DNA of 64,000 nucleotides from Minisyncoccia bacterium (lineage in GTDB: Bacteria > Patescibacteriota > Minisyncoccia > Phycocordibacterales > UBA918): assembly GCA_041738755.1 (NCBI GenBank), contig JBGSPE010000007.1, positions 13,079 to 77,078 on the forward strand, in the 5' to 3' direction. Under the pieces are notes generated by a model. It was given only the letters and a program-made list of their open reading frames with translations. It had not been told where the DNA came from and did not search any database. Below, piece by piece: positions 8,990-61,959 of the stretch; the first letter of the stretch is position 1; each line of letters opens with the position of its first letter. The position numbers were made by a program, and so were the translations under genes.

Positions 8990-9048
8990 AGTAATTAAAC
9001 ACATGTTATGATTAAACAAGCAGTAGTCGCTGGAGGATGCTTCTGGGG
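8990..9048 (+). repeat. direct repeat copy A: duplicated msrA ribosome-binding region plus first 14 codons
   Basis: aggtaat(t/a)aaaca…ATGATTAAACAAGCAGTAGTCGCTGGAGGATGCTTCTGGGGT; the 42-nt ATG-containing core is identical to 9164-9205. Confidence 0.9.
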
Positions 9049-9148
9049 TGAGAAAGCGTGGGACGCTTTCGCAAGACCTTGCCAACTAGTTTCGAGCTTG
9101 CGAGAAAATAGTGACAAGGTGTACAGTTCCTGTAAGGAATAAGAGAGG

Positions 9149-9205
9149 TAATAAAACATATCTATGATTAAACAAGCAGTAGTCGCTGGAGGATGCTTCT
9201 GGGGT
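9149..9205 (+). repeat. direct repeat copy B (true msrA start)
   Basis: Second copy of the same ~57-60 nt segment; coding continues in frame as msrA. Confidence 0.9.
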
Positions 9206-9652
9206 CTCGAAGACCTAATCCGCACCCTTCCTGGCGTTATCGCCACCGAAGCTGGGTATACCGGCGGAACCAATGAGAACCCAACCTATCAAAGCCATCC
9301 CGGACACGCCGAGGCGGTCTTGATTGAATATGATGAAGAGAAAATTAGTTATCAGCAAATTCTCGATTTCTTTTTTCAAATTCATAATCCAACAACGTTG
9401 AATCAGCAGGGAAATGATCGAGGAACAGCCTATCGGTCCGCAATATTTTTTGCCACCGAAGAAGAGAAGCGCGTTGCTGAGGAGATGATTGAAATTGTGA
9501 ACGAATCAGAGCGCTGGAGTGATCCGGTAGTTACCACACTTGAGCCACTTGCTCGGTTTTGGCCAGCTGAGGATTATCACCAGGATTATCTGATTAAAAA
9601 TCCTGGCGGGTATACCTGTCACGCGATTTACTTCGATAGTTATCTGAAATAA
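9164..9652 (+). CDS. msrA: peptide methionine sulfoxide reductase MsrA
   Basis: GCFWG catalytic motif at the N-terminus, 162 aa, typical MsrA length. Confidence 0.9.
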   Translation: MIKQAVVAGGCFWGLEDLIRTLPGVIATEAGYTGGTNENPTYQSHPGHAEAVLIEYDEEKISYQQILDFFFQIHNPTTLNQQGNDRGTAYRSAIFFATEEEKRVAEEMIEIVNESERWSDPVVTTLEPLARFWPAEDYHQDYLIKNPGGYTCHAIYFDSYLK

Positions 9653-15315: not shown

Positions 15316-17868
15316 ATGTCAGGAAATCTGTTTATACCAAAGACGTTTCAGAGCGATGCTACTTCTCTTAGAACATCTCCCGTGTCGCCGCAGCCAGTGT
15401 CAGCTCCCAAAGTTGATAAAGCAGGAGCTTTGCTCCAAAAAATTCTCCATTATATCCTCATTGGCTTGGCTACACTGCTTCCCGTATTTTTTATTCCCGG
15501 TCTACCTGCGTCACTGAATTTTGATAAAGCCTTCCTGGCTTTGGCGGCTGGTCTTTCGGTGGTATCAGTACTTTGTCTAACAGCACTCCGTTCAAATAAA
15601 TTTGCGACCGTGATTCCAATGGCACTCGTGCTTTTTTGGGGAGTGGTTGTTGCGGCCGTAGTGAGTGCGTTGCTGTCGGGCGATGTGCAGGATGCTTTTC
15701 GAGGTCAGGTGTTTGAACCACTAACAGCAGGATTCTTAGCGCTTATGGCACTCACGATGACAATCCCACTCGTCCTACAAAAGTCTAAAGTGATGAGTCT
15801 GCGGGTCGTGTCTGGGTTTGTGGCCGCTGTTGCAGCTGTTGTTCTGTATTCGATTGTCCGGATATTCTTTGGGGCAGGTTTTCTTTCATTGGGAAGTTTT
15901 GGTGCTGTTACCAGTTCACCGATTGGAGGGTTCAACGACTTAGCTATCTTGAGTGCCCTCTCAATTATTATTGGATTAATAACATTATTACTTTTGCCTT
16001 TACGAAAAGGACTGCAAATTGCCATTTTTATACTTACTATTTTGGCGACATTTTTGATGGCAATGGTAAACTTCTTTTACCTTTGGATTGTTGTGGGATT
16101 TTTTGGACTACTCCTTCTCGTGTACATCCTCTCTCGCAATACGCTTTTCCCTGGAACCGGAGAAGCTGACTCGACAGTTCCGCCACTCCTTACGATTGCT
16201 ACAGCTTTTGTCTGTGTCGTGAGTGTCGTATTTATTTTTGCGGGTGAGTTTGTCGGTACACAAATTTCAAATGCAACTGGTGTCAGTTACCTTGAAGTAC
16301 GTCCCTCAGCAGCAGCTACAATTGATATTGCAAAATCTGTGTACCAAGAAGACATTCTTCTGGGAATTGGTCCAAATCGATTCGCCGATGCTTGGAGTCT
16401 CTACAAAGACAGGAGCATCAACGAAACACTTTTTTGGTCAGTTGATTTCACTGCCGGATACAGCTTTATGCTGACTCTGTTTATTACCTTAGGTGTACTT
16501 GGCACAACATTACTGATTGCTTTTCAGGGTTGGTTCTTGTATCTCGGTTACCGAATGCTCTTAAAGAGTCAAAACACTGACCCGTTTTGGAATTACTTTG
16601 GGGTAGTCACGTTTGTTGGAGCGGTTTTCCTTTGGGGGATGTCATATGTCTATGTACCAAATGCTACGACATTACTACTCACTGCACTATTTACAGGATT
16701 AACCTTTGTTGCTTACCAAGCCTTGGTTCCGCAAGCAATCAAAGTTCTCCCGCTGGTTACTACTAGAAGTCGAGGGTTTGCCCTTATGACGGTGTCAATA
16801 ATTGCAATTGTGGGTTCGGTAAGTATTCTTTTTTCAGTAGGAAAGCAATACGCTGCTCAAGCTACGTTTACTCGCGCCCAGACGGCTGATTCAATTGAAC
16901 GATTTGATCAACAACTACAAGCCGCCACGATACTGTTTCCAGATGATACGTTCATTGGTTTGCGAGCCCAAGCTCGTTTAGCTCAATTACAAGAGATTGC
17001 TGCTATTGCAGAACCAACCGAACAAGATCAAGAACGGTTTGTCGCACTTGCTGAAGAAGCAATTATCTTGGCTCAAGGTGCTCTTAGCCTTGACCCAAGT
17101 AATCCTGATTTACACGCTGTACTCGGCGGTGTCTACAGTATTCTAGCGGTTGCTGGCTTAGCTGATGCAGAAGCCAGAGCCACAGCAACCTATGGTGACG
17201 CACAGTTTCGAGATCCTCTCAACCCTTCATATTCACTCATGAAAGCCTATATGGCGGTTCGACTTAACGACCTGGGGCGGGCTCGTGAAGAAATTAGTGC
17301 CGCGCTTGCTTTAAAACAAAATTACACCGAAGCACTCTTCTTACTTTCACAGCTTGATATTCAAGAAGGGAATACAGATGCGGCCATTGCTACAACTCGT
17401 CAAATTATCACCCTTGAACCTAATAACCCTACTCGGTATTACCAACTTGGTATCTTGCTCAATGCAGCCAATGATCAGGGTGGAGCAATTGCAGCCTTCG
17501 AGGCAGCTATCGCGCGAGATACAAACTTTGCGAACGCCCGCTACTTACTTGCGTTGACGTACGTTCAGGTAGGTCGACCAGAGGACGCCTTACGTGAGCT
17601 TCGGATTGTTGAAGAATCTAATCCAGATAACGCTGAACTACGTGATGTTATTGCTCAGATTCAATCAACCGGTACGGTAGCTGTTCCGCAGTCTTCAGCA
17701 CTTGAGCCGTCAGTAACTGAGGGCTCGCCTACGCAAGCAAATGGTGAAGGTGTTACGGCTGAAGAAGCTCCAGATACCGATCTTATTTCTCCAGTTAATA
17801 CACCACCAAGTAACTCAGAGCAATCGTCAACAGTCGCACCCCCAACTTCTTCGTCTGATACTGAGTAA
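15316..17868 (+). CDS. large polytopic membrane protein, O-antigen ligase/polymerase-like N-domain with C-terminal TPR repeats
   Basis: ~12 predicted TM helices in the first ~500 aa, then TPR-like repeats (…YYQLGILLNAANDQGGAIAAFEAAIARDTNFANARYLLALTYVQVGRPEDAL…) and a Ser/Pro-rich tail. Confidence 0.6.
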   Translation: MSGNLFIPKTFQSDATSLRTSPVSPQPVSAPKVDKAGALLQKILHYILIGLATLLPVFFIPGLPASLNFDKAFLALAAGLSVVSVLCLTALRSNKFATVIPMALVLFWGVVVAAVVSALLSGDVQDAFRGQVFEPLTAGFLALMALTMTIPLVLQKSKVMSLRVVSGFVAAVAAVVLYSIVRIFFGAGFLSLGSFGAVTSSPIGGFNDLAILSALSIIIGLITLLLLPLRKGLQIAIFILTILATFLMAMVNFFYLWIVVGFFGLLLLVYILSRNTLFPGTGEADSTVPPLLTIATAFVCVVSVVFIFAGEFVGTQISNATGVSYLEVRPSAAATIDIAKSVYQEDILLGIGPNRFADAWSLYKDRSINETLFWSVDFTAGYSFMLTLFITLGVLGTTLLIAFQGWFLYLGYRMLLKSQNTDPFWNYFGVVTFVGAVFLWGMSYVYVPNATTLLLTALFTGLTFVAYQALVPQAIKVLPLVTTRSRGFALMTVSIIAIVGSVSILFSVGKQYAAQATFTRAQTADSIERFDQQLQAATILFPDDTFIGLRAQARLAQLQEIAAIAEPTEQDQERFVALAEEAIILAQGALSLDPSNPDLHAVLGGVYSILAVAGLADAEARATATYGDAQFRDPLNPSYSLMKAYMAVRLNDLGRAREEISAALALKQNYTEALFLLSQLDIQEGNTDAAIATTRQIITLEPNNPTRYYQLGILLNAANDQGGAIAAFEAAIARDTNFANARYLLALTYVQVGRPEDALRELRIVEESNPDNAELRDVIAQIQSTGTVAVPQSSALEPSVTEGSPTQANGEGVTAEEAPDTDLISPVNTPPSNSEQSSTVAPPTSSSDTE

Positions 17869-22313: not shown

Positions 22314-22409
22314 TATTGTGCCCTTGGCAGGAATCCCCTCCGGGCCTGGATAATTGTCATAAATATCAAATCACCCTTCGATTCCTGACAGAAGTAAAAC
22401 TATTTACTT

Positions 22410-22454
22410 CTGCCAGAGGCACATTTAAAAATCTTTTAAATGTGCCTCTGGCAG
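22410..22454. repeat. perfect 17-bp inverted repeat whose right arm is the 3' end of tRNA-Arg
   Basis: ctgccagaggcacattt (22410-22426), loop aaaaatctttt, aaatgtgcctctggcag (22438-22454); the right arm covers the tRNA acceptor 3' strand plus trailer. Confidence 0.9.
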
Positions 22455-22514
22455 GAATCGAACCCACATCTCCCCCTTAGGACGGGGTAGCTCTATCCAT
22501 TGAGCTACAAAGGC
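22443..22514 (-). tRNA. tRNA-Arg (anticodon CCT)
   Basis: Reverse complement folds: acceptor GCCTTTG/CAGAGGC, D-arm GCTC AATGGATA GAGC, anticodon loop GTCCTAA, T-arm GTGGG TTCGATT CCTGC, discriminator A; A27·G43 mismatch noted. Confidence 0.75.
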
Positions 22515-40380: not shown

Positions 40381-40408
40381 TTAACAAAACCGCTAGAAAG
40401 CGGTTTTG
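40381..40408. terminator. hairpin terminator between ftsZ and trxB
   Basis: aaaccgc tagaaa gcggttttgtttgg. Confidence 0.65.
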
Positions 40409-40569
40409 TTTGGTGTGTAGAGGTTGGTAGGAACCGGTCACGAGTTACTAACCAAAATATTTATTTTATTATAAATATTTTGCTAAGTACTCGCGACCCC
40501 AGCTCGCTGTTCAGTGCGGCGGGCCAGAGCCGCACTTCACAACGCTCCGCTTCGCAGTTCCGTCAAAGC

Positions 40570-41793
40570 TTATTTAAGCTTTGACCTTCTTAAGAAGGCC
40601 GGAACGGCGCCCCAGTCGTCTTCGTCATCGGTGTCGTCTTGTTGATCAACTGGTTTTGGATCACGCTTTGGGATGTCGTGTACATTTGGGGTGGGTTCAG
40701 GAATTCTTGTTTCATCAGCTTTACGTGGAAGTGAGTTGAAGATTTTTCCGCGGTTTACTGGTTCAGCTTCTACCTCTGGCTCTGGTTCATTTTGGATACT
40801 TGGTGCTCGACGAGCAATATGACTCCGGGCAGCCGCTTCTTCGGGGAAGCCGGTAGCGATAACCGTTACCTTGATTTCATTCTTCTTCAACTTGTCGTCC
40901 TTGATAGCTCCAAAGATAACCTTAGCTTGTGAGTCGATTGATTCGGTAATCACACGAGCAGCATCTTGGATTTCAAGCATTCCGAGGTCATCGCCCCCAG
41001 CAATCGCAAAGAGGACGCCCTTGGCTCCCGTGATAGAAACTTCAAGGAGTGGGGAATTGATAGCACTTCGAGCTGCTTCTTCGGCTCGCTTTTCACCTGA
41101 TGAGACACCGACACCCATAAGGGCTGAACCAGCATTCTCCATAACGCTTCGAATGTCAGCGAAGTCGACGTTGATGATACCAGGCATGGTAATAAGGTCT
41201 GAGATACCCTCAACTGCTTGTTTCAAGACATTGTCACACTGCTCAAAAGCATTACGTACGGTAGTTTCCTTATCAACGATAGCAAGGAGTCGGTCATTTG
41301 GAATGGTGATGAGGGCATCTACTTCTTTCTTGAGTTCCTCGATACCTTGGAGAGCCAGTCGCATTCGTTCTTGTCCTTCAAACAAAAATGGCTTGGTGAC
41401 AACAGCAATCGTAAGCGCTCCGCTCTCGCGAGCAATCTTAGCTACAACCGGTGCTGAACCAGTTCCGGTTCCACCACCCATACCTCCGGTAATAAAGATC
41501 ATATCTGACCCCTTGATTGCATTAGCGATTTCTTCACGAGTTTCCTCTGCGGCGCGACGACCCATGTCAGGGTTACCACCAGCTCCGAGTCCTCGAGTAA
41601 GATTTTTACCAATGTGAATTTTTTTCTTCGCGAGTGAGTGATGGAGATCTTGTGCGTCACTGTTGATAGCAATGAACTCCACTCCTTTCACTTTTGAAGA
41701 CACCATGTGATTGACGGCGTTCTTTCCAGAACCACCAACACCCACCACACGAATGCGGGCGAAGGATTCAACGTCTGATTTTATTTGTTCCAT
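40570..41793 (-). CDS. ftsZ: cell division GTPase FtsZ
   Basis: [13 protein letters not shown] tubulin signature, T7 loop, long disordered C-terminal tail. Confidence 0.95.
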
Positions 41794-59035: not shown

Positions 59036-60094
59036 TTGTATGATTTGAGCCACATGAGTACTGCTACGTATAAAGACCTGAGAAGTCGGGAAGAAAAGCA
59101 GCTGGCGGCGAAAGCTGATACACGTCCACGAGTGACCTTGTCGTTCTATCGATATGTGCAAATTGCTGATCCTGAACAGTTTCGTTTGGAGCTATTAGAG
59201 GCCTGGAGTAGCTTAGAATGCCGTGGTCGTATCTACGTCGCACACGAGGGTATTAATGCGCAAATGGATGTGCTGAAGGAGCAGTGGGACGCCTTTGACG
59301 CTTTTGTGCAGAGCCGACTGGAGCTTGCTGCAGTGCCATACAAGATAGCGGTAGAAGAAGGTGAACTGCCGTCGTTTTTTAAGTTGACAATCAAGGTCAA
59401 AGATAAGATTGTGGCGGACGGTCTTGATGATGCCTCATTTGATGTGACTGATACAGGAGTGTATCTGACAGCGGCTGAAATAAATGCGTATGTCGAAGAC
59501 CCGGATGCGGTAGTGGTTGATATGCGAAATTCTTATGAGAGTGAAGTAGGTCATTTTGAAGGAGCTATTACTCCAAATGTAGAGACGTTTCGGGATGAGC
59601 TTGCTTTAGCACCTGCTCTCCTTGAACCATACAAGGATAAGAAGATTGCCCTCTACTGTACTGGTGGCATTCGTTGTGAAAAGGCCAGTGCCTGGCTCAA
59701 GCATAACGGTTTTAAGGATGTACGACACTTAAAGGGTGGGATTATTGACTACGCTCATCAAGTGAATGAGGAAGATTTAGAGAATAAATTTAAAGGGAAA
59801 AATTTTGTCTTCGATGAACGTCTCGGTGAGCGAGTGGGAGGGGAAGTGATTGCTCATTGTCACTTATGTAAAGTTACAAAGAGCGACACACACCACCATT
59901 GTAAAAATGAAGTGTGCCACGCTCTATTTATTGGATGTGATACCTGTATAGAAAAGAAACAGGGATATTGTGGAATTATCTGTCAGTTGACTGATAGATT
60001 ACCAAAGGGAATGAAAAAGCGGTACGCCAGATTCTATAACCAAGTCATCCGTAAGCGCATGAAATTTAAGAAGACGAGGTTGGTGAGTATTTAA
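59036..60094 (+). CDS. trhO: rhodanese-domain tRNA uridine(34) hydroxylase (TrhO/YceA, UPF0176)
   Basis: UPF0176 N-domain, rhodanese active-site loop YCTGGIRCEKAS, C-terminal Cys-rich tail. Confidence 0.75.
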   Translation: MYDLSHMSTATYKDLRSREEKQLAAKADTRPRVTLSFYRYVQIADPEQFRLELLEAWSSLECRGRIYVAHEGINAQMDVLKEQWDAFDAFVQSRLELAAVPYKIAVEEGELPSFFKLTIKVKDKIVADGLDDASFDVTDTGVYLTAAEINAYVEDPDAVVVDMRNSYESEVGHFEGAITPNVETFRDELALAPALLEPYKDKKIALYCTGGIRCEKASAWLKHNGFKDVRHLKGGIIDYAHQVNEEDLENKFKGKNFVFDERLGERVGGEVIAHCHLCKVTKSDTHHHCKNEVCHALFIGCDTCIEKKQGYCGIICQLTDRLPKGMKKRYARFYNQVIRKRMKFKKTRLVSI

Positions 60095-60118
60095 AAAACT
60101 GCCACAGGCAGTTTTTTA
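60094..60118 (+). terminator. rho-independent terminator
   Basis: aaaaaactgcc aca ggcagtttttt. Confidence 0.8.
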
Positions 60119-60218
60119 AATTGCGCGTGAGAGAGGCTCGGTCACAAATAATTTTGCAAACAAAATTTTCTCGACCCGTAAAACAGTGTATAGACACTGT
60201 TTTACCATTTGTTCACAA

Positions 60219-60270
60219 GCTCACATCATTCCGGCTTTCGAGTCCCCACGGTAGCAAAGCAGTTTGCTAC
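60219..60270. repeat. repeated intergenic hairpin element, copy 1 (palindrome ggtagcaaa gcag tttgctacc at 60249-60270)
   Basis: Shares …tcacaag…catc at(t/g)ccggct…caaagcagtttgc… with copy 2; contains ttcgagtcc, a same-sense copy of the tRNA-Leu T-loop/T-stem. Confidence 0.7.
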
Positions 60271-60272
60271 CT

Positions 60273-60334
60273 TCTCACGCACAGACAAAAATCGCCCTCA
60301 TAAATGAGGGCTGATTTTTGTATCTGTGCGTGAG
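60273..60334. repeat. long imperfect inverted repeat enclosing a terminator hairpin and overlapping the tRNA-Leu 3' end
   Basis: ctcacgcacagacaaaaatc [gccctca taaa tgagggc] gatttttgtatctgtgcgtgag; the right arm includes the tRNA discriminator plus acceptor 3' strand. Confidence 0.8.
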
Positions 60335-60407
60335 AGAGGACTCGAACCTCCACAGGTCACCCTACTAGTTCCTAAGACTAGCGCGTCTACCATTCCGCCA
60401 CTCACGC
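60327..60407 (-). tRNA. tRNA-Leu (anticodon TAG), long variable arm
   Basis: Reverse complement: acceptor GCGTGAG/CTCACGC, anticodon stem CTAGT/ACTAG with loop CTTAGGA, variable arm ~TAGGGTGACCTGTGG, T-loop TTCGAGT, discriminator A. Confidence 0.8.
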
Positions 60408-60593
60408 AATGTGGGCGAGTATAGCAGATTTCTTTGTTGGTTGCTACCAACTTGGAAAAGTCTTCCAAACATTCTAAGTCCGGACAAAAATAAAAACCCT
60501 TTCGGGTCTTTATCGTCGTCACAAGTCCTCAGAAAGTATATTCCTTACAGTCATTACTTTCTTGGCTCGCGACCCCGCCTCACTCGTAGCAAA

Positions 60594-60644
60594 GCTACAT
60601 CATGCCGGCTCGGACAGCCGTCGCAAGCAAAGCAGTTTGCTTGC
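60594..60644. repeat. repeated intergenic hairpin element, copy 2 (palindrome gcaagcaaa gcag tttgcttgc at 60623-60644)
   Basis: Same core and loop as copy 1 with two compensatory base-pair swaps in the stem; contains cggacagccg, complementary to the tRNA-Lys 3' end/trailer on the other strand. Confidence 0.7.
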
Positions 60645-60649
60645 TAATT

Positions 60650-60685
60650 AAAACAACCTCAGACTAAAAAGTCTGAGGTTGTTTT
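60650..60685 (-). terminator. hairpin terminator downstream of tRNA-Lys
   Basis: aaaacaacctcagac taaaaa gtctgaggttgtttt. Confidence 0.7.
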
Positions 60686-60696
60686 AATTCCGGCTG

Positions 60697-60769
60697 TCCG
60701 CCCTCCAGGACTCGAACCTGGGACCATCTCGTTAAGAGCGAGCTGCTCTACCAACTGAGCTAAGGGCGG
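60697..60769 (-). tRNA. tRNA-Lys (anticodon CTT)
   Basis: Reverse complement: acceptor CCGCCCT/AGGGCGG, D-arm GCTC AGTTGGTA GAGC, anticodon stem GCTCG/CGAGA with loop CTCTTAA, T-arm CCAGG TTCGAGT CCTGG, discriminator A. Confidence 0.85.
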
Positions 60770-60824
60770 ATTGGTTGGTCAAGCGAGTTTACAACAAAGT
60801 AGACCTCGACACAAGTCACTTTTG

Positions 60825-60897
60825 AGTCCTGGGTGGGAGTCGAACCCACGTATGGCGGTTTTGCAAACCGCAGCGTTAACCACTTCGCCACCAGGAC
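60825..60897 (-). tRNA. tRNA-Cys (anticodon GCA)
   Basis: Reverse complement: acceptor GTCCTGG/CCAGGAC, anticodon stem GCGGT/ACCGC with loop TTGCAAA, T-arm GTGGG TTCGACT CCCAC, discriminator U (as in bacterial tRNA-Cys). Confidence 0.85.
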
Positions 60898-60988
60898 AGT
60901 ACGGCCCACTATATCACCATTTACCTAAAACAAAAATAACAATTTGGGGGAATACTTGTTATTATGTGAGTATAATCACGTTTACCAT

Positions 60989-61477
60989 ATGGCAACACGT
61001 CGTTGGACAATTAAAGACTTAAAGACAGCAGTGAAATCATCTCACAGCACCCGTGAAGTTATTTTTAAATTAGGTTTAATCCCAGCGGGTGGGAATTATG
61101 AGCAAATAAAAACCGCAATATTTGAGAATAAAATTTCAACTACACATTTTACCGGTAAGGGATGGCGAATAAACCGGACGTTCGCACCAAACCCGCGCAT
61201 CCCACTTTCAAATATATTGGTAGGTCACTCAAAATTTCAAAGCTTCAAACTCAAAAAGCGATTATTTACAGAGGGTTTAAAGTTACAAAAGTGCGAGCTG
61301 TGTGGCTGGGCAGAACAATCACAAGATGGTAGAATCCCTCTCGAACTCGATCATATCAATGGTGACCGTTATGACAATAGAATAGAAAATCTAAGGATTC
61401 TCTGTCCAAATTGTCACAGCTTACAACCTACGCATCGAGGGATGAATCAAAAACGCCGGGTGAAGCAGAAGCCCTAG
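60989..61477 (+). CDS. free-standing HNH endonuclease (homing-endonuclease-like) between tRNA genes
   Basis: C-terminal HNH motif [25 protein letters not shown] with CELCGW…CPNCH zinc ligands; basic N-terminal putative DNA-binding domain; TATAAT at 60971-60976 just upstream of the ATG at 60989. Confidence 0.8.
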
Positions 61478-61483
61478 CAATAG

Positions 61484-61566
61484 GCCAGGGTGGTGGAATG
61501 GTAGACACGCGACACTTAAAATGTCGTGGGAGAAATCCCGTATGGGTTCGAGTCCCATCCCCGGCA
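61484..61566 (+). tRNA. tRNA-Leu (anticodon TAA), long variable arm
   Basis: Acceptor GCCAGGG/CCCCGGC (A4·C69 mismatch), anticodon stem CGACA/TGTCG with loop CTTAAAA, variable-arm hairpin GGGAGAAATCCC, T-arm ATGGG TTCGAGT CCCAT, discriminator A. Confidence 0.75.
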
Positions 61567-61617
61567 CAATAATTGTCAAAAACCCCGGCCAGTATGGCCG
61601 AGGTTTTTGTTTGTCAC

Positions 61618-61959
61618 TTACTTCAAACTCTGCTTCTGAATTTCTTGGAATACTTCATCGACATGTTGTCGGTGTCGTTCACCGGCATCAACCATGAAAT
61701 CAAAGTGGGGGATACGTTTCATTCGAGCCTTCTCCTTAATATAGTTTCGGACACTGGTGCCGCTTCGTTTGAGGAAAATAAGGGCATCAGCTTCCTTTCC
61801 ATCTGGAATAGTCGTAAAGAATACAATCGCTTTTTTAAGGTCAGGTGAAACGTCTACTCGCGTAACAGTAATCATCGGGCTGGTGTTAGCCTCGTGTAAG
61901 ATAAAGGTCGCTACATGCTCCTTCAATAAATTTCCAACTTTTGCTTGGCGTTCTGACAT
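61618..61959 (-). CDS. rbfA: ribosome-binding factor A
   Basis: ~113 aa KH-like RbfA pattern (…[16 protein letters not shown]…[20 protein letters not shown]…); directly downstream of infB. Confidence 0.8.

Follow-up and report, generated by a model that had tools for sequence, protein, structure and literature searches.

Bacteria of the candidate phyla radiation (CPR, Patescibacteria) have minimal genomes with few recognisable mobile elements. Miniature inverted-repeat transposable elements (MITEs) and other small repeats (Correia, REP/BIME, RUP, BOX, ERIC) are short, non-coding, dispersed and non-autonomous, form hairpins and are co-transcribed with their neighbours. 3'ETS-leuZ and mascRNA are structured RNAs that lie just downstream of a tRNA or are flanked by tRNA-like helices, and could be released by tRNA-processing enzymes. 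The T-loop is the classic symmetric sublocation for tRNA-targeting integrases (bioRxiv 10.1101/2020.11.02.365908), and its use at ssrA has been described together with tandem islands and cis-mobilizable members (PMC3146451). In CTX-phi (PMC3442271, PMC3089051), one of the integrative mobile elements exploiting Xer (IMEX), single-stranded DNA is described as folding into a hairpin attP that mimics the chromosomal site. Here we report on a family of hairpin-bearing, non-coding units recognised in a stretch of 64,000 nt, the window, from contig JBGSPE010000007.1 of a Minisyncoccia bacterium (assembly GCA_041738755.1), where they lie at the ends of tRNA genes and of ftsZ.

A preliminary description of the window had drawn attention to a tRNA cluster (60121-60700) carrying two hairpin elements of about 50 nt. 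The two hairpins, each with a 9-bp stem and a 4-nt loop, and the CATCATnCCGGCT core are indeed present (ACATCAT(T/G)CCGGCT at 60223 and 60597), and the shared 16-mer AGCAAAGCAGTTTGCT has just two exact matches within the 64 kb, one per element. Their length had been underestimated: the elements measure about 200 nt, and the ~50-nt core is the junction of a larger unit. Both are copies of a family of non-coding units, ~105-310 nt long, from one CPR/Patescibacteria clade. The window holds four of them, at tRNA-Leu, at tRNA-Lys, at tRNA-Arg (a minimal version) and just after ftsZ. Further copies were found both in the window (22318-22441 and 40383-40609) and in related contigs, which yielded 15 distinct hairpin versions. 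The unit is repeated, oriented and structurally conserved, is accompanied by duplication and displacement of gene ends at the DNA level, and shows presence/absence and copy-number differences. We consider it likely, on balance, that the hairpin elements are small, non-coding, non-autonomous insertion modules of this clade, which enter gene ends and restore them. The literature searched on tRNAs and repeats of Saccharibacteria and Patescibacteria yielded no description of units of this kind, and the family apparently has not been described before.

Relatives were collected as follows. A strict motif scan of one genome per species (185,579 species representatives) and of metagenome contigs gave a single further genome match, L003, a metagenome-assembled genome (MAG) labelled Candidatus Saccharibacteria, and no match in the metagenome contigs. 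Since the exact core is rare, relatives were reached through synteny, as contigs of TrhO homologues at 62-83% identity (L numbers in the text). The public labels of the MAGs vary (Saccharibacteria, Paceibacteria, others), and the group is termed here a CPR/Patescibacteria clade. These contigs share a conserved block, gyrA … pilin genes – Band_7 – trhO – tRNA cluster – rbfA – infB, in which the tRNA cluster, 1.5-5.5 kb long, differs greatly from contig to contig. For the interior domain of the unit, an alignment (A1) was folded and converted into a covariance model (R1); the search with R1 produced 22 matches in CPR loci and none in 510 kb of TrhO loci from other phyla. As the units had no blastn match in phages and plasmids and the interior-domain pattern none in viral contigs, a phage or plasmid origin was discarded.

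Read on the gene strand, a unit opens with the end of the gene, interpreted as a replacement copy (for tRNAs, T-loop to discriminator with the trailer). A long terminator-like hairpin comes next, then an inverted copy of trailer and acceptor 3' strand and, after 1-3 nt, the short hairpin, whose stem has 9(-10) bp and whose loop has 4 nt. Beyond a further 1-2 nt lies an inverted copy of the T-stem 3' strand and T-loop. It is followed by an interior domain of 40-200 nt ending in G(U/G)GAC and by the tRNA 3' end once more, as a direct copy from the T-loop onward. The order seen in window copy 1 recurs in L003, L005, L008, L026, L033, L036 and L037, and many contigs show the architecture, at tRNAs of the types Leu-tag, Leu-taa, Cys, Arg and Lys. 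Between the inverted acceptor and T-stem copies the hairpin fills a gap of 25 or 26 nt in 12/12 rows (9 distinct elements), with a search that permitted 15-39 nt. A displaced, decaying copy of the gene 3' end usually lies after the folded domain, and direct sequence reading places the insert junctions at about tRNA positions 53-57. All tRNA-derived segments vary with the local tRNA; for instance, the inverted T-loop copy reads ttcgaTtcccc in L003 versus ttcgaGtcc in the window. Model matches are co-oriented with the upstream gene in every case where the neighbouring gene was read. The units contain no open reading frames (ORFs), and the protein-coding content of the element region amounts to short overlapping ORFs mirroring the nucleotide repeat.

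Most of the tRNA fragments listed in the preliminary description fit this scheme as they stood: the 16/17-nt copy of the tRNA-Leu 3' end at 60123-60138, the placement of the real tRNA-Leu 3' end in an inverted repeat (19-21 nt, 60273-60293 with 60313-60335), the T-loop copy ttcgagtcc in inverted orientation, and the perfect complementarity of cggacagccg (60611-60620) to the tRNA-Lys end and trailer (60691-60700). One had to be reassigned: ctcacgca (60273-60280), previously taken for an independent copy of the tRNA 5' end, belongs to the inverted 3'-end copy. In the case of tRNA-Arg, which has wobble pairs in its T-stem, it is the 3' strand and not the 5' strand that the inner copy complements; this copy is therefore a true inverted one and no second tRNA, which excludes tandem tRNA duplication. 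A split or permuted tRNA and a T-loop intron were discarded along with it, because the inner copy is reverse-complementary to the 3' strand and it is the downstream copy that shows decay. A retroviral-type primer-binding site was dismissed because the copies carry genomic trailer and not CCA. Neither ARAGORN nor the tRNA covariance model detected a cloverleaf or tRNA-like domain in the units, whose likeness to tRNA is limited to two helices, one acceptor-like and one T-like, separated by a single hairpin.

In unit 1 the short hairpin falls precisely at the junction of the inverted acceptor and T-stem copies, and the long hairpin was scored as a terminator on both strands by a consensus terminator scan. 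The displaced tRNA-Leu end is found in the same arrangement in relatives, as an 18/18-nt copy in L003 and a 22-nt exact copy in L008. The tRNA-Lys unit is a variant in which the 9-bp hairpin comes directly after the long hairpin; in the predicted fold the next 8-13 nt pair with the last four tRNA bases and the trailer, giving a three-way junction. It occurs at one shared position in 7 lineages and lacks the displaced 3' end. Hairpins at this position in L005, L008, L025, L043 and L020 have other stems and the identical loop. The long hairpins have the G+C-rich stem and U-run of terminators, the 9-bp hairpin is without a U-run, and the interior domain lies beyond the terminator. The hairpin that directly follows unit 2 was not listed by the consensus scanner.

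Compensatory changes in the stem, noticed earlier as two double substitutions between the window copies, turned out to be part of a wider covariation across related genomes. Among the 15 distinct hairpins from relatives, 94.7% of cells pair and double changes affect 9/9 pairs; the covariation score is 0.99 against 0.24 for shuffled sequences (0/500 shuffles reach it), and slid registers drop to 27-42% paired. Closing stems (n=11, from 7 tRNA-Lys units, 1 related insert and 3 ftsZ units) comprise 105 Watson-Crick pairs, 1 G.U pair and 2 mismatches in 108 cells, a pairing kept even though trailer identity is merely 2-3 of 6 between most tRNA-Lys lineages. The interior domain has 12 consensus pairs, 90.7% of them paired, and a covariation score of 0.52 versus 0.23 (again 0/500 shuffles). 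Its 3-bp helix occurs as GCC/GGC, GGC/GCC, AGC/GCU and GAC/GUC, and one pair switches from G-C to A-U in step with GGAG…CGAG versus GGAA…UGAG. Chance as the origin of the pattern is discarded by the shuffle controls. In unit 2 the first arm of the domain consists of the 3-bp closing helix and a variable hairpin, split by conserved GGA/GA and GA-rich internal loops; the second arm is the long hairpin GUCGCGAG…CUUGUGAC.

The two parts of the structure differ in strand. In the long 3' hairpin of the interior domain, 13/18 distinct sequences have a G.U pair on the gene-sense strand, and the share of G.U among paired cells is 14% for the interior versus 1.3% for hairpin and closing stem (p=2e-7). 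This difference assigns the modelled interior fold to the gene-sense strand only. The predicted fold of unit 2 is 23 kcal/mol better on that strand (-111.8 kcal/mol versus -89.0 for the complement). Hairpin and closing stem are kept complementary on both strands. Because G.T wobbles are tolerated in single-stranded DNA too, these data fix the strand and not the chemistry. An attempt to assign the 9-bp hairpin to a strand failed, as its signals are mixed: some loops are GNRA-like opposite the tRNA strand, G.U pairs are almost absent, and two G.T pairs lie on that opposite strand. Co-orientation, the strand-specific terminator after unit 2 and the strand-specific fold lend indirect support to a probable transcription of the interior domain together with the tRNA or ftsZ, as their 3' extension. 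No Rfam family other than tRNA was matched at the gathering threshold or at E up to 10 (the best non-tRNA score in 59900-61700 was 30.8 bits, the cut-off being 60), so that a known RNA family was discarded. A box C/D or k-turn reading of AUGAUG…GUGAG was also rejected, since by direct reading the tandem G.A arrangement has no properly placed 3-nt bulge; the segment is treated as an internal loop.

Footprints of insertion were counted over the 72 distinct tRNAs that had sufficient flank. Of these, 14 have their own 3' end repeated downstream, as a 17-nt copy (<=3 mismatches, <=600 nt away); upstream the count is 0/72. L008 has exact repeats of 18-22 nt and triple arrays, with three copies of the tRNA-Leu(taa) end, two of the tRNA-Lys end and a 22-nt exact repeat at tRNA-Leu(tag); some intervals between its repeats hold cargo ORFs. 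The same tRNA-Leu(tag) carries different inserts in different lineages. Displaced copies each keep their own old terminator, and in L037 also the old inverted palindrome arm, as stacking of successive units predicts.

Other small inserts were noticed at gene ends. L008 provides an upstream parallel to the 3'-end events, a 22-nt exact duplication of the 5' end of tRNA-Leu(taa) (15696-15717 and 15803-15824) around an insert of ~85 nt. In the window, the start codon and first 14 codons (MIKQAVVAGGCFWG, MsrA-like) of the ORF at 9164-9652 are spanned by a perfect 43-nt direct repeat (9007-9049 and 9163-9205); the 3' end of the 113-nt insert between its copies shows homology to a second family of short inserts, which lie between tRNA 3'-end repeats in L008. 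The 43-nt repeat with its insert suggests that gene 5' ends too are hit by small end-duplicating inserts. Members of this second insert family, B, end in GTAC(C/A)GTTCCTGTA(G/A)GGA and were seen in L008 (13536-13658, 15508-15629, 11488-11600).

The fourth unit of the window came to light as a profile match (40435-40564) directly behind the ftsZ stop codon and ahead of a terminator. In the predicted fold its closing stem pairs the ftsZ codons CGCCGUUCCG with CGGAACUGCG, and the same two-arm domain follows. The ftsZ-trxB spacer measures 72 nt in L099 (FtsZ 88% identical to that of the window) and 131 nt in L097 (84%), both with no unit, 196 nt in the window, with one unit, and 488 nt in L094 (97%), with two in tandem. 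Both L094 copies end in GTGAC, followed at once by a displaced coding end for the FtsZ C-terminus, '…RRSKLK*', which in one of them reads 'GSNLSRRSKLK*'. By our own reading, most codons differ between the live ftsZ end of L094 and the outer displaced fragment, including switches of codon family for Arg and Ser. The coding bases of this live end form the left arm of a long palindrome with the unit start; the live ftsZ end of the window is similar to the outer L094 fragment. The ftsZ case is the protein-gene equivalent of the tRNA picture, with a new gene end brought in and the old one displaced. Hence the proposed family of tRNA-associated structured elements stands as a family with covarying structure, but it is not strictly tRNA-associated. 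A diversity-generating retroelement at ftsZ was rejected, as the codon changes are not adenine-specific. A loop motif, ACGTAGTAAAA(A)T, lies between the gene end and the inverted copy in the tRNA-Lys insert of L008 and is also present in the ftsZ units of L094 (7970-7990).

Table 1. Units and associated tRNA genes in the window (positions in the 64,000-nt stretch)
Feature	Position	Strand	Remarks
Unit 1, displaced and slightly decayed tRNA-Leu 3' end (T-loop to discriminator)	60121-60138	-	12-nt exact core
Unit 1, interior domain (variant without ACUUAG repeats)	60139-60236	-	contains CATCATTCCGGCT; GTGAC end at displaced tRNA junction; R1 43 bits, E=1e-8; nhmmer E=8e-19
Unit 1, inverted copy of tRNA-Leu T-loop and T-stem 3' strand (ttcgagtcccc on +)	60237-60249	-	10-nt match, 2 mismatches
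Unit 1, hairpin ggtagcaaa-gcag-tttgctacc	60250-60271		9-bp stem, 4-nt loop; GCAG on +, CUGC on tRNA strand
Unit 1, inverted copy of tRNA-Leu acceptor 3' strand, discriminator and trailer	60272-60293	-	19-21 nt, 76-89% complementary to 60313-60335
Unit 1, terminator-like long hairpin, palindrome centre	60287-60318		core GCCCTCAT..ATGAGGGC, 60294-60311
tRNA-Leu(tag)	60326-60407	-	tRNA detection; 60327-60344 is the left palindrome arm
Unit 2, terminator-like hairpin AAAGACCCGAAAGGGUUUUUAUUUUUG, directly after the unit	60485-60511	-	U-run on tRNA strand only; sequence reading and fold
Unit 2, interior domain	60516-60610	-	R1 69.6 bits, E=4e-15
Unit 2, closing stem 3' strand cggacagccg	60611-60620	-	perfect complement of 60691-60700 (tRNA-Lys end and trailer, the 5' strand)
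Unit 2, hairpin gcaagcaaa-gcag-tttgcttgc	60623-60644		9-bp stem, 4-nt loop
Unit 2, terminator-like long hairpin	60646-60689		perfect 20 bp
tRNA-Lys(ctt)	60696-60769	-	60691-60769 with first trailer bases
tRNA-Cys(gca)	60824-60897	-	
Unit 3, minimal, at tRNA-Arg(cct)	22318-22441	-	tRNA at 22442-22514
Unit 3, displaced 3'-end copy	22318-22335		
Unit 3, interior			41 nt
Unit 3, inverted T-loop copy	22377-22387		
Unit 3, hairpin	22390-22411		agaagtaaa-acta-tttacttct
Unit 3, inverted acceptor and trailer	22412-22430		
Unit 4, at ftsZ 3' end	40383-40609	-	ftsZ ORF 40570-41793; nhmmer E=1e-13; R1 93.9 bits
Unit 4, closing stem	40600-40609 with 40553-40562		
Unit 4, two hairpins	40585-40598, 40564-40583		in or over last codons
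Unit 4, interior domain	40435-40564		
Unit 4, decayed displaced end	40419-40436		
Unit 4, terminator	40383-40411		

If the elements are insertion modules, a unit would enter the gene end through recombination in the T-loop or, at ftsZ, in a T-arm-like site (GCCGUUCCGGC). The insertion would supply a new gene end and leave the gene intact, and the old end would shift downstream and decay; repeated events would generate tandem arrays. The 3' part of tRNA-Leu(tag) would then have been delivered by unit 1. Joining would be carried out by a recombinase encoded elsewhere: the units being gene-less, with no recombinase found nearby (Pfam for the L008 ORFs, by eye elsewhere), they would be non-autonomous. 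Gene end and inverted copy form a palindrome or a three-way junction, and this folded mimic of the target end may act as the donor site. A bolder version, which we hold to be rather doubtful, postulates a class of gene-less mobile elements of 100-300 nt whose single-stranded form (replicated or imported DNA, or RNA) mimics the end of an essential gene, whose folded domain recruits a host enzyme, and which integrate at tRNA T-loops and similar sites while repairing the gene, the target being set by their own paired copies and not by a protein.

Several observations weigh against an insertion module. No unit had a recombinase, transposase or reverse transcriptase inside it or beside it: Pfam revealed none among ORFs of the larger L008 intervals and islands, and those of the other tRNA clusters gave none by eye, with no database search of the latter. 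Excised or free forms did not turn up, nor did an insertion event that distinguishes near-identical genomes. Double-strand recombination would be difficult for circles as small as 105-300 bp. With no displaced end and one position common to 7 lineages, the units at tRNA-Lys agree with vertical inheritance of a functional element as well as with mobility. A long terminator-like hairpin would halt transcription before the interior domain, and the presence, within one family, of matching direct and inverted copies of different targets lacks an explanation.

Alternative explanations account for some of these features. The preliminary description had considered scars of recombination at tRNA ends, which captures part of the truth: the downstream bias of the copies and their tandem arrays mark the tRNA fragments as products of insertion at the DNA level. 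Passive scars would be the remains of integrase islands or prophages that entered tRNA genes and were later almost fully deleted, with DNA near the attachment (att) site left between the tRNA and its 3'-end repeat. Direct repeats of the tRNA 3' end from the T-loop are the classic footprint of tRNA integrases, tandem island arrays are known (bioRxiv 10.1101/2020.11.02.365908; PMC3146451), and the cargo ORFs in L008 intervals point the same way. Nevertheless, independent deletions would not leave five tRNAs and ftsZ with a shared hairpin position and a covarying interior fold. The consistent size range of the units, the selection on pairing evident in same-position copies of different lineages, and the lack of any integrase remnant among L008 ORFs (Pfam) also speak against scars, which we regard as unlikely. 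Template switching at terminator quasi-palindromes, which would copy the tRNA end across a hairpin next to otherwise unrelated spacer, appears very improbable. Terminator palindromes do reach the acceptor strand in 13/71 tRNAs of the clade (<=1 mismatch in 11 nt; examples in L026), also in the absence of hairpin and interior domain, and the arms are almost perfectly Watson-Crick. This process may keep the two arms matched, but it cannot yield direct downstream copies, the interior domain, the fixed hairpin position or the tandem ftsZ units.

The units might also be functional host RNAs that evolved in place as 3' spacers of tRNA operons, serving in processing, termination or stabilisation or as small RNAs, their tRNA-like parts pairing with the tRNA end or mimicking tRNA for RNase P/Z. 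The gene-sense fold with conserved G.U pairs, the tRNA-strand-specific terminator behind unit 2, and the compensatory changes by which the tRNA-Lys unit keeps its position and its stem, tRNA end included, through 7 lineages are all in line with this explanation; in the Leu, Arg and Cys units, moreover, the hairpin stands where D and anticodon arms would leave the acceptor/T-stem stack. For the vertically conserved tRNA-Lys unit it is a fair reading. For the family as a whole we judge it improbable. An inverted copy would compete with folding of the tRNA, and the almost purely Watson-Crick pairing of hairpin and closing stem, compared with the interior, is unusual for selection on RNA only. The tandem copies and empty sites at ftsZ and the lineage-specific inserts at the same tRNA are left unexplained. 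So are the decaying displaced gene ends. A role as processing or termination signal or as small antisense RNA, as entertained in the preliminary description, is putative.

The region of the tRNA-Leu and tRNA-Lys units has trhO (rhodanese-type, 59054-60094, +) on one side and the rbfA-infB block on the other. A bidirectional terminator of trhO (60089-60121) abuts the displaced tRNA-Leu end of unit 1. Three minus-strand tRNA genes (Leu-tag, Lys-ctt, Cys-gca) were confirmed, and none of the tRNA genes read (e.g. 60326-60407, 60696-60769) encodes a genomic 3' CCA. At 60418-60426 the minus strand has TGCTATACT, an extended -10-like box, followed by CGCC(C/T/A)(A/G)CATT and the 5' end of tRNA-Leu(tag); as the box is kept in L005 and L043, tRNA-Leu would have its own promoter just downstream of unit 2. 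Between tRNA-Cys and tRNA-Lys, TCGACACAAGTC (60806-60817) matches the 3' end of unit 2, TCGTCACAAGTC (60516-60527), at 11/12 positions and may be the leftover of a lost tRNA-Cys unit. Beyond tRNA-Cys lie an ORF for an HNH_3 endonuclease and then a plus-strand tRNA-Leu(taa). The HNH_3 ORF (162-171 aa) recurs in the variable tRNA cluster, at 60989-61477 (+) in the window, 9485-9979 in L014, 9272-9787 in L022 and 9700-10215 in L040; it may be a homing gene in its own right or a factor that acts on the tRNA genes. In the Logan assembly of the source sample (SRR28170465) one contig ends ~107 nt past trhO and the next starts 120 nt before the HNH ORF. The tRNA/element region is thus unassembled there, and breaks at ~60200 and ~60870 are expected for palindromic repeats.

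Were the units insertion modules, they would represent a very small, undescribed integrating element of CPR bacteria that reshapes tRNA gene ends and a cell-division gene, and they would account for assembly breaks at tRNA clusters, hypervariable tRNA spacers and recoded ftsZ ends. The compact folded domain might act as a cofactor of recombination, as a signal for processing or as a stabiliser. As the target is spelled twice in the unit, directly and inverted, the family could reveal a new way of choosing an integration site.

Among known systems, 3'ETS-leuZ and mascRNA are single loci without displaced gene ends, and the unit domain has no Rfam match. In MITEs the terminal inverted repeats are specific to the element and the target duplications are short and of fixed length, whereas the repeats of the units copy the target, measure ~8-40 nt and vary from site to site; unlike that of a MITE, insertion of a unit restores the gene end. 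Tandem islands and cis-mobilizable elements (CIMEs), which use tyrosine or serine recombinases, insert in the T-loop of t(m)RNA genes, supply a new 3' end and leave the old one as a downstream direct repeat of ~20 bp; successive insertions build arrays, and members without a recombinase of their own exist (PMC3146451; bioRxiv 10.1101/2020.11.02.365908). The units share with integrase islands the direct repeat of the tRNA 3' end and the T-loop junction, and not the internal integrase gene or the kilobase size with cargo. They share with the cis-mobilizable, non-autonomous elements the retention of both att repeats, the lack of recombination genes and tandem accretion with related elements; the loci collected showed no autonomous partner that uses the same att site. 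Islands have at least ~3.5 kb and carry genes, and the units, at 105-310 nt, are gene-less and 10-30 times smaller. In addition, the units differ from islands and CIMEs by the inverted copy of the target end, the covarying hairpin at a fixed position and the conserved folded domain; one unit family serves several tRNAs and a protein gene, and no integrase was found nearby (Pfam, L008).

The inverted copy of the target end goes beyond ordinary integrase biology and recalls the folded single-strand attP of CTX-phi. CTX-phi is a 7-kb phage that uses XerCD at dif, while the units target tRNA T-loops and ftsZ codons; its attP has functional mismatches, and the stems of the units are perfect. In CTX-phi too (PMC3442271, PMC3089051), a stem of two inverted copies imitates the duplex target, both inverted halves lie side by side at one end after integration, and copies pile up in tandem. 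Like IMEX, the units have two inverted target copies able to fold into a duplex mimic of the target. By analogy, a mechanism resembling the folded attP of CTX-phi is possible for the units.

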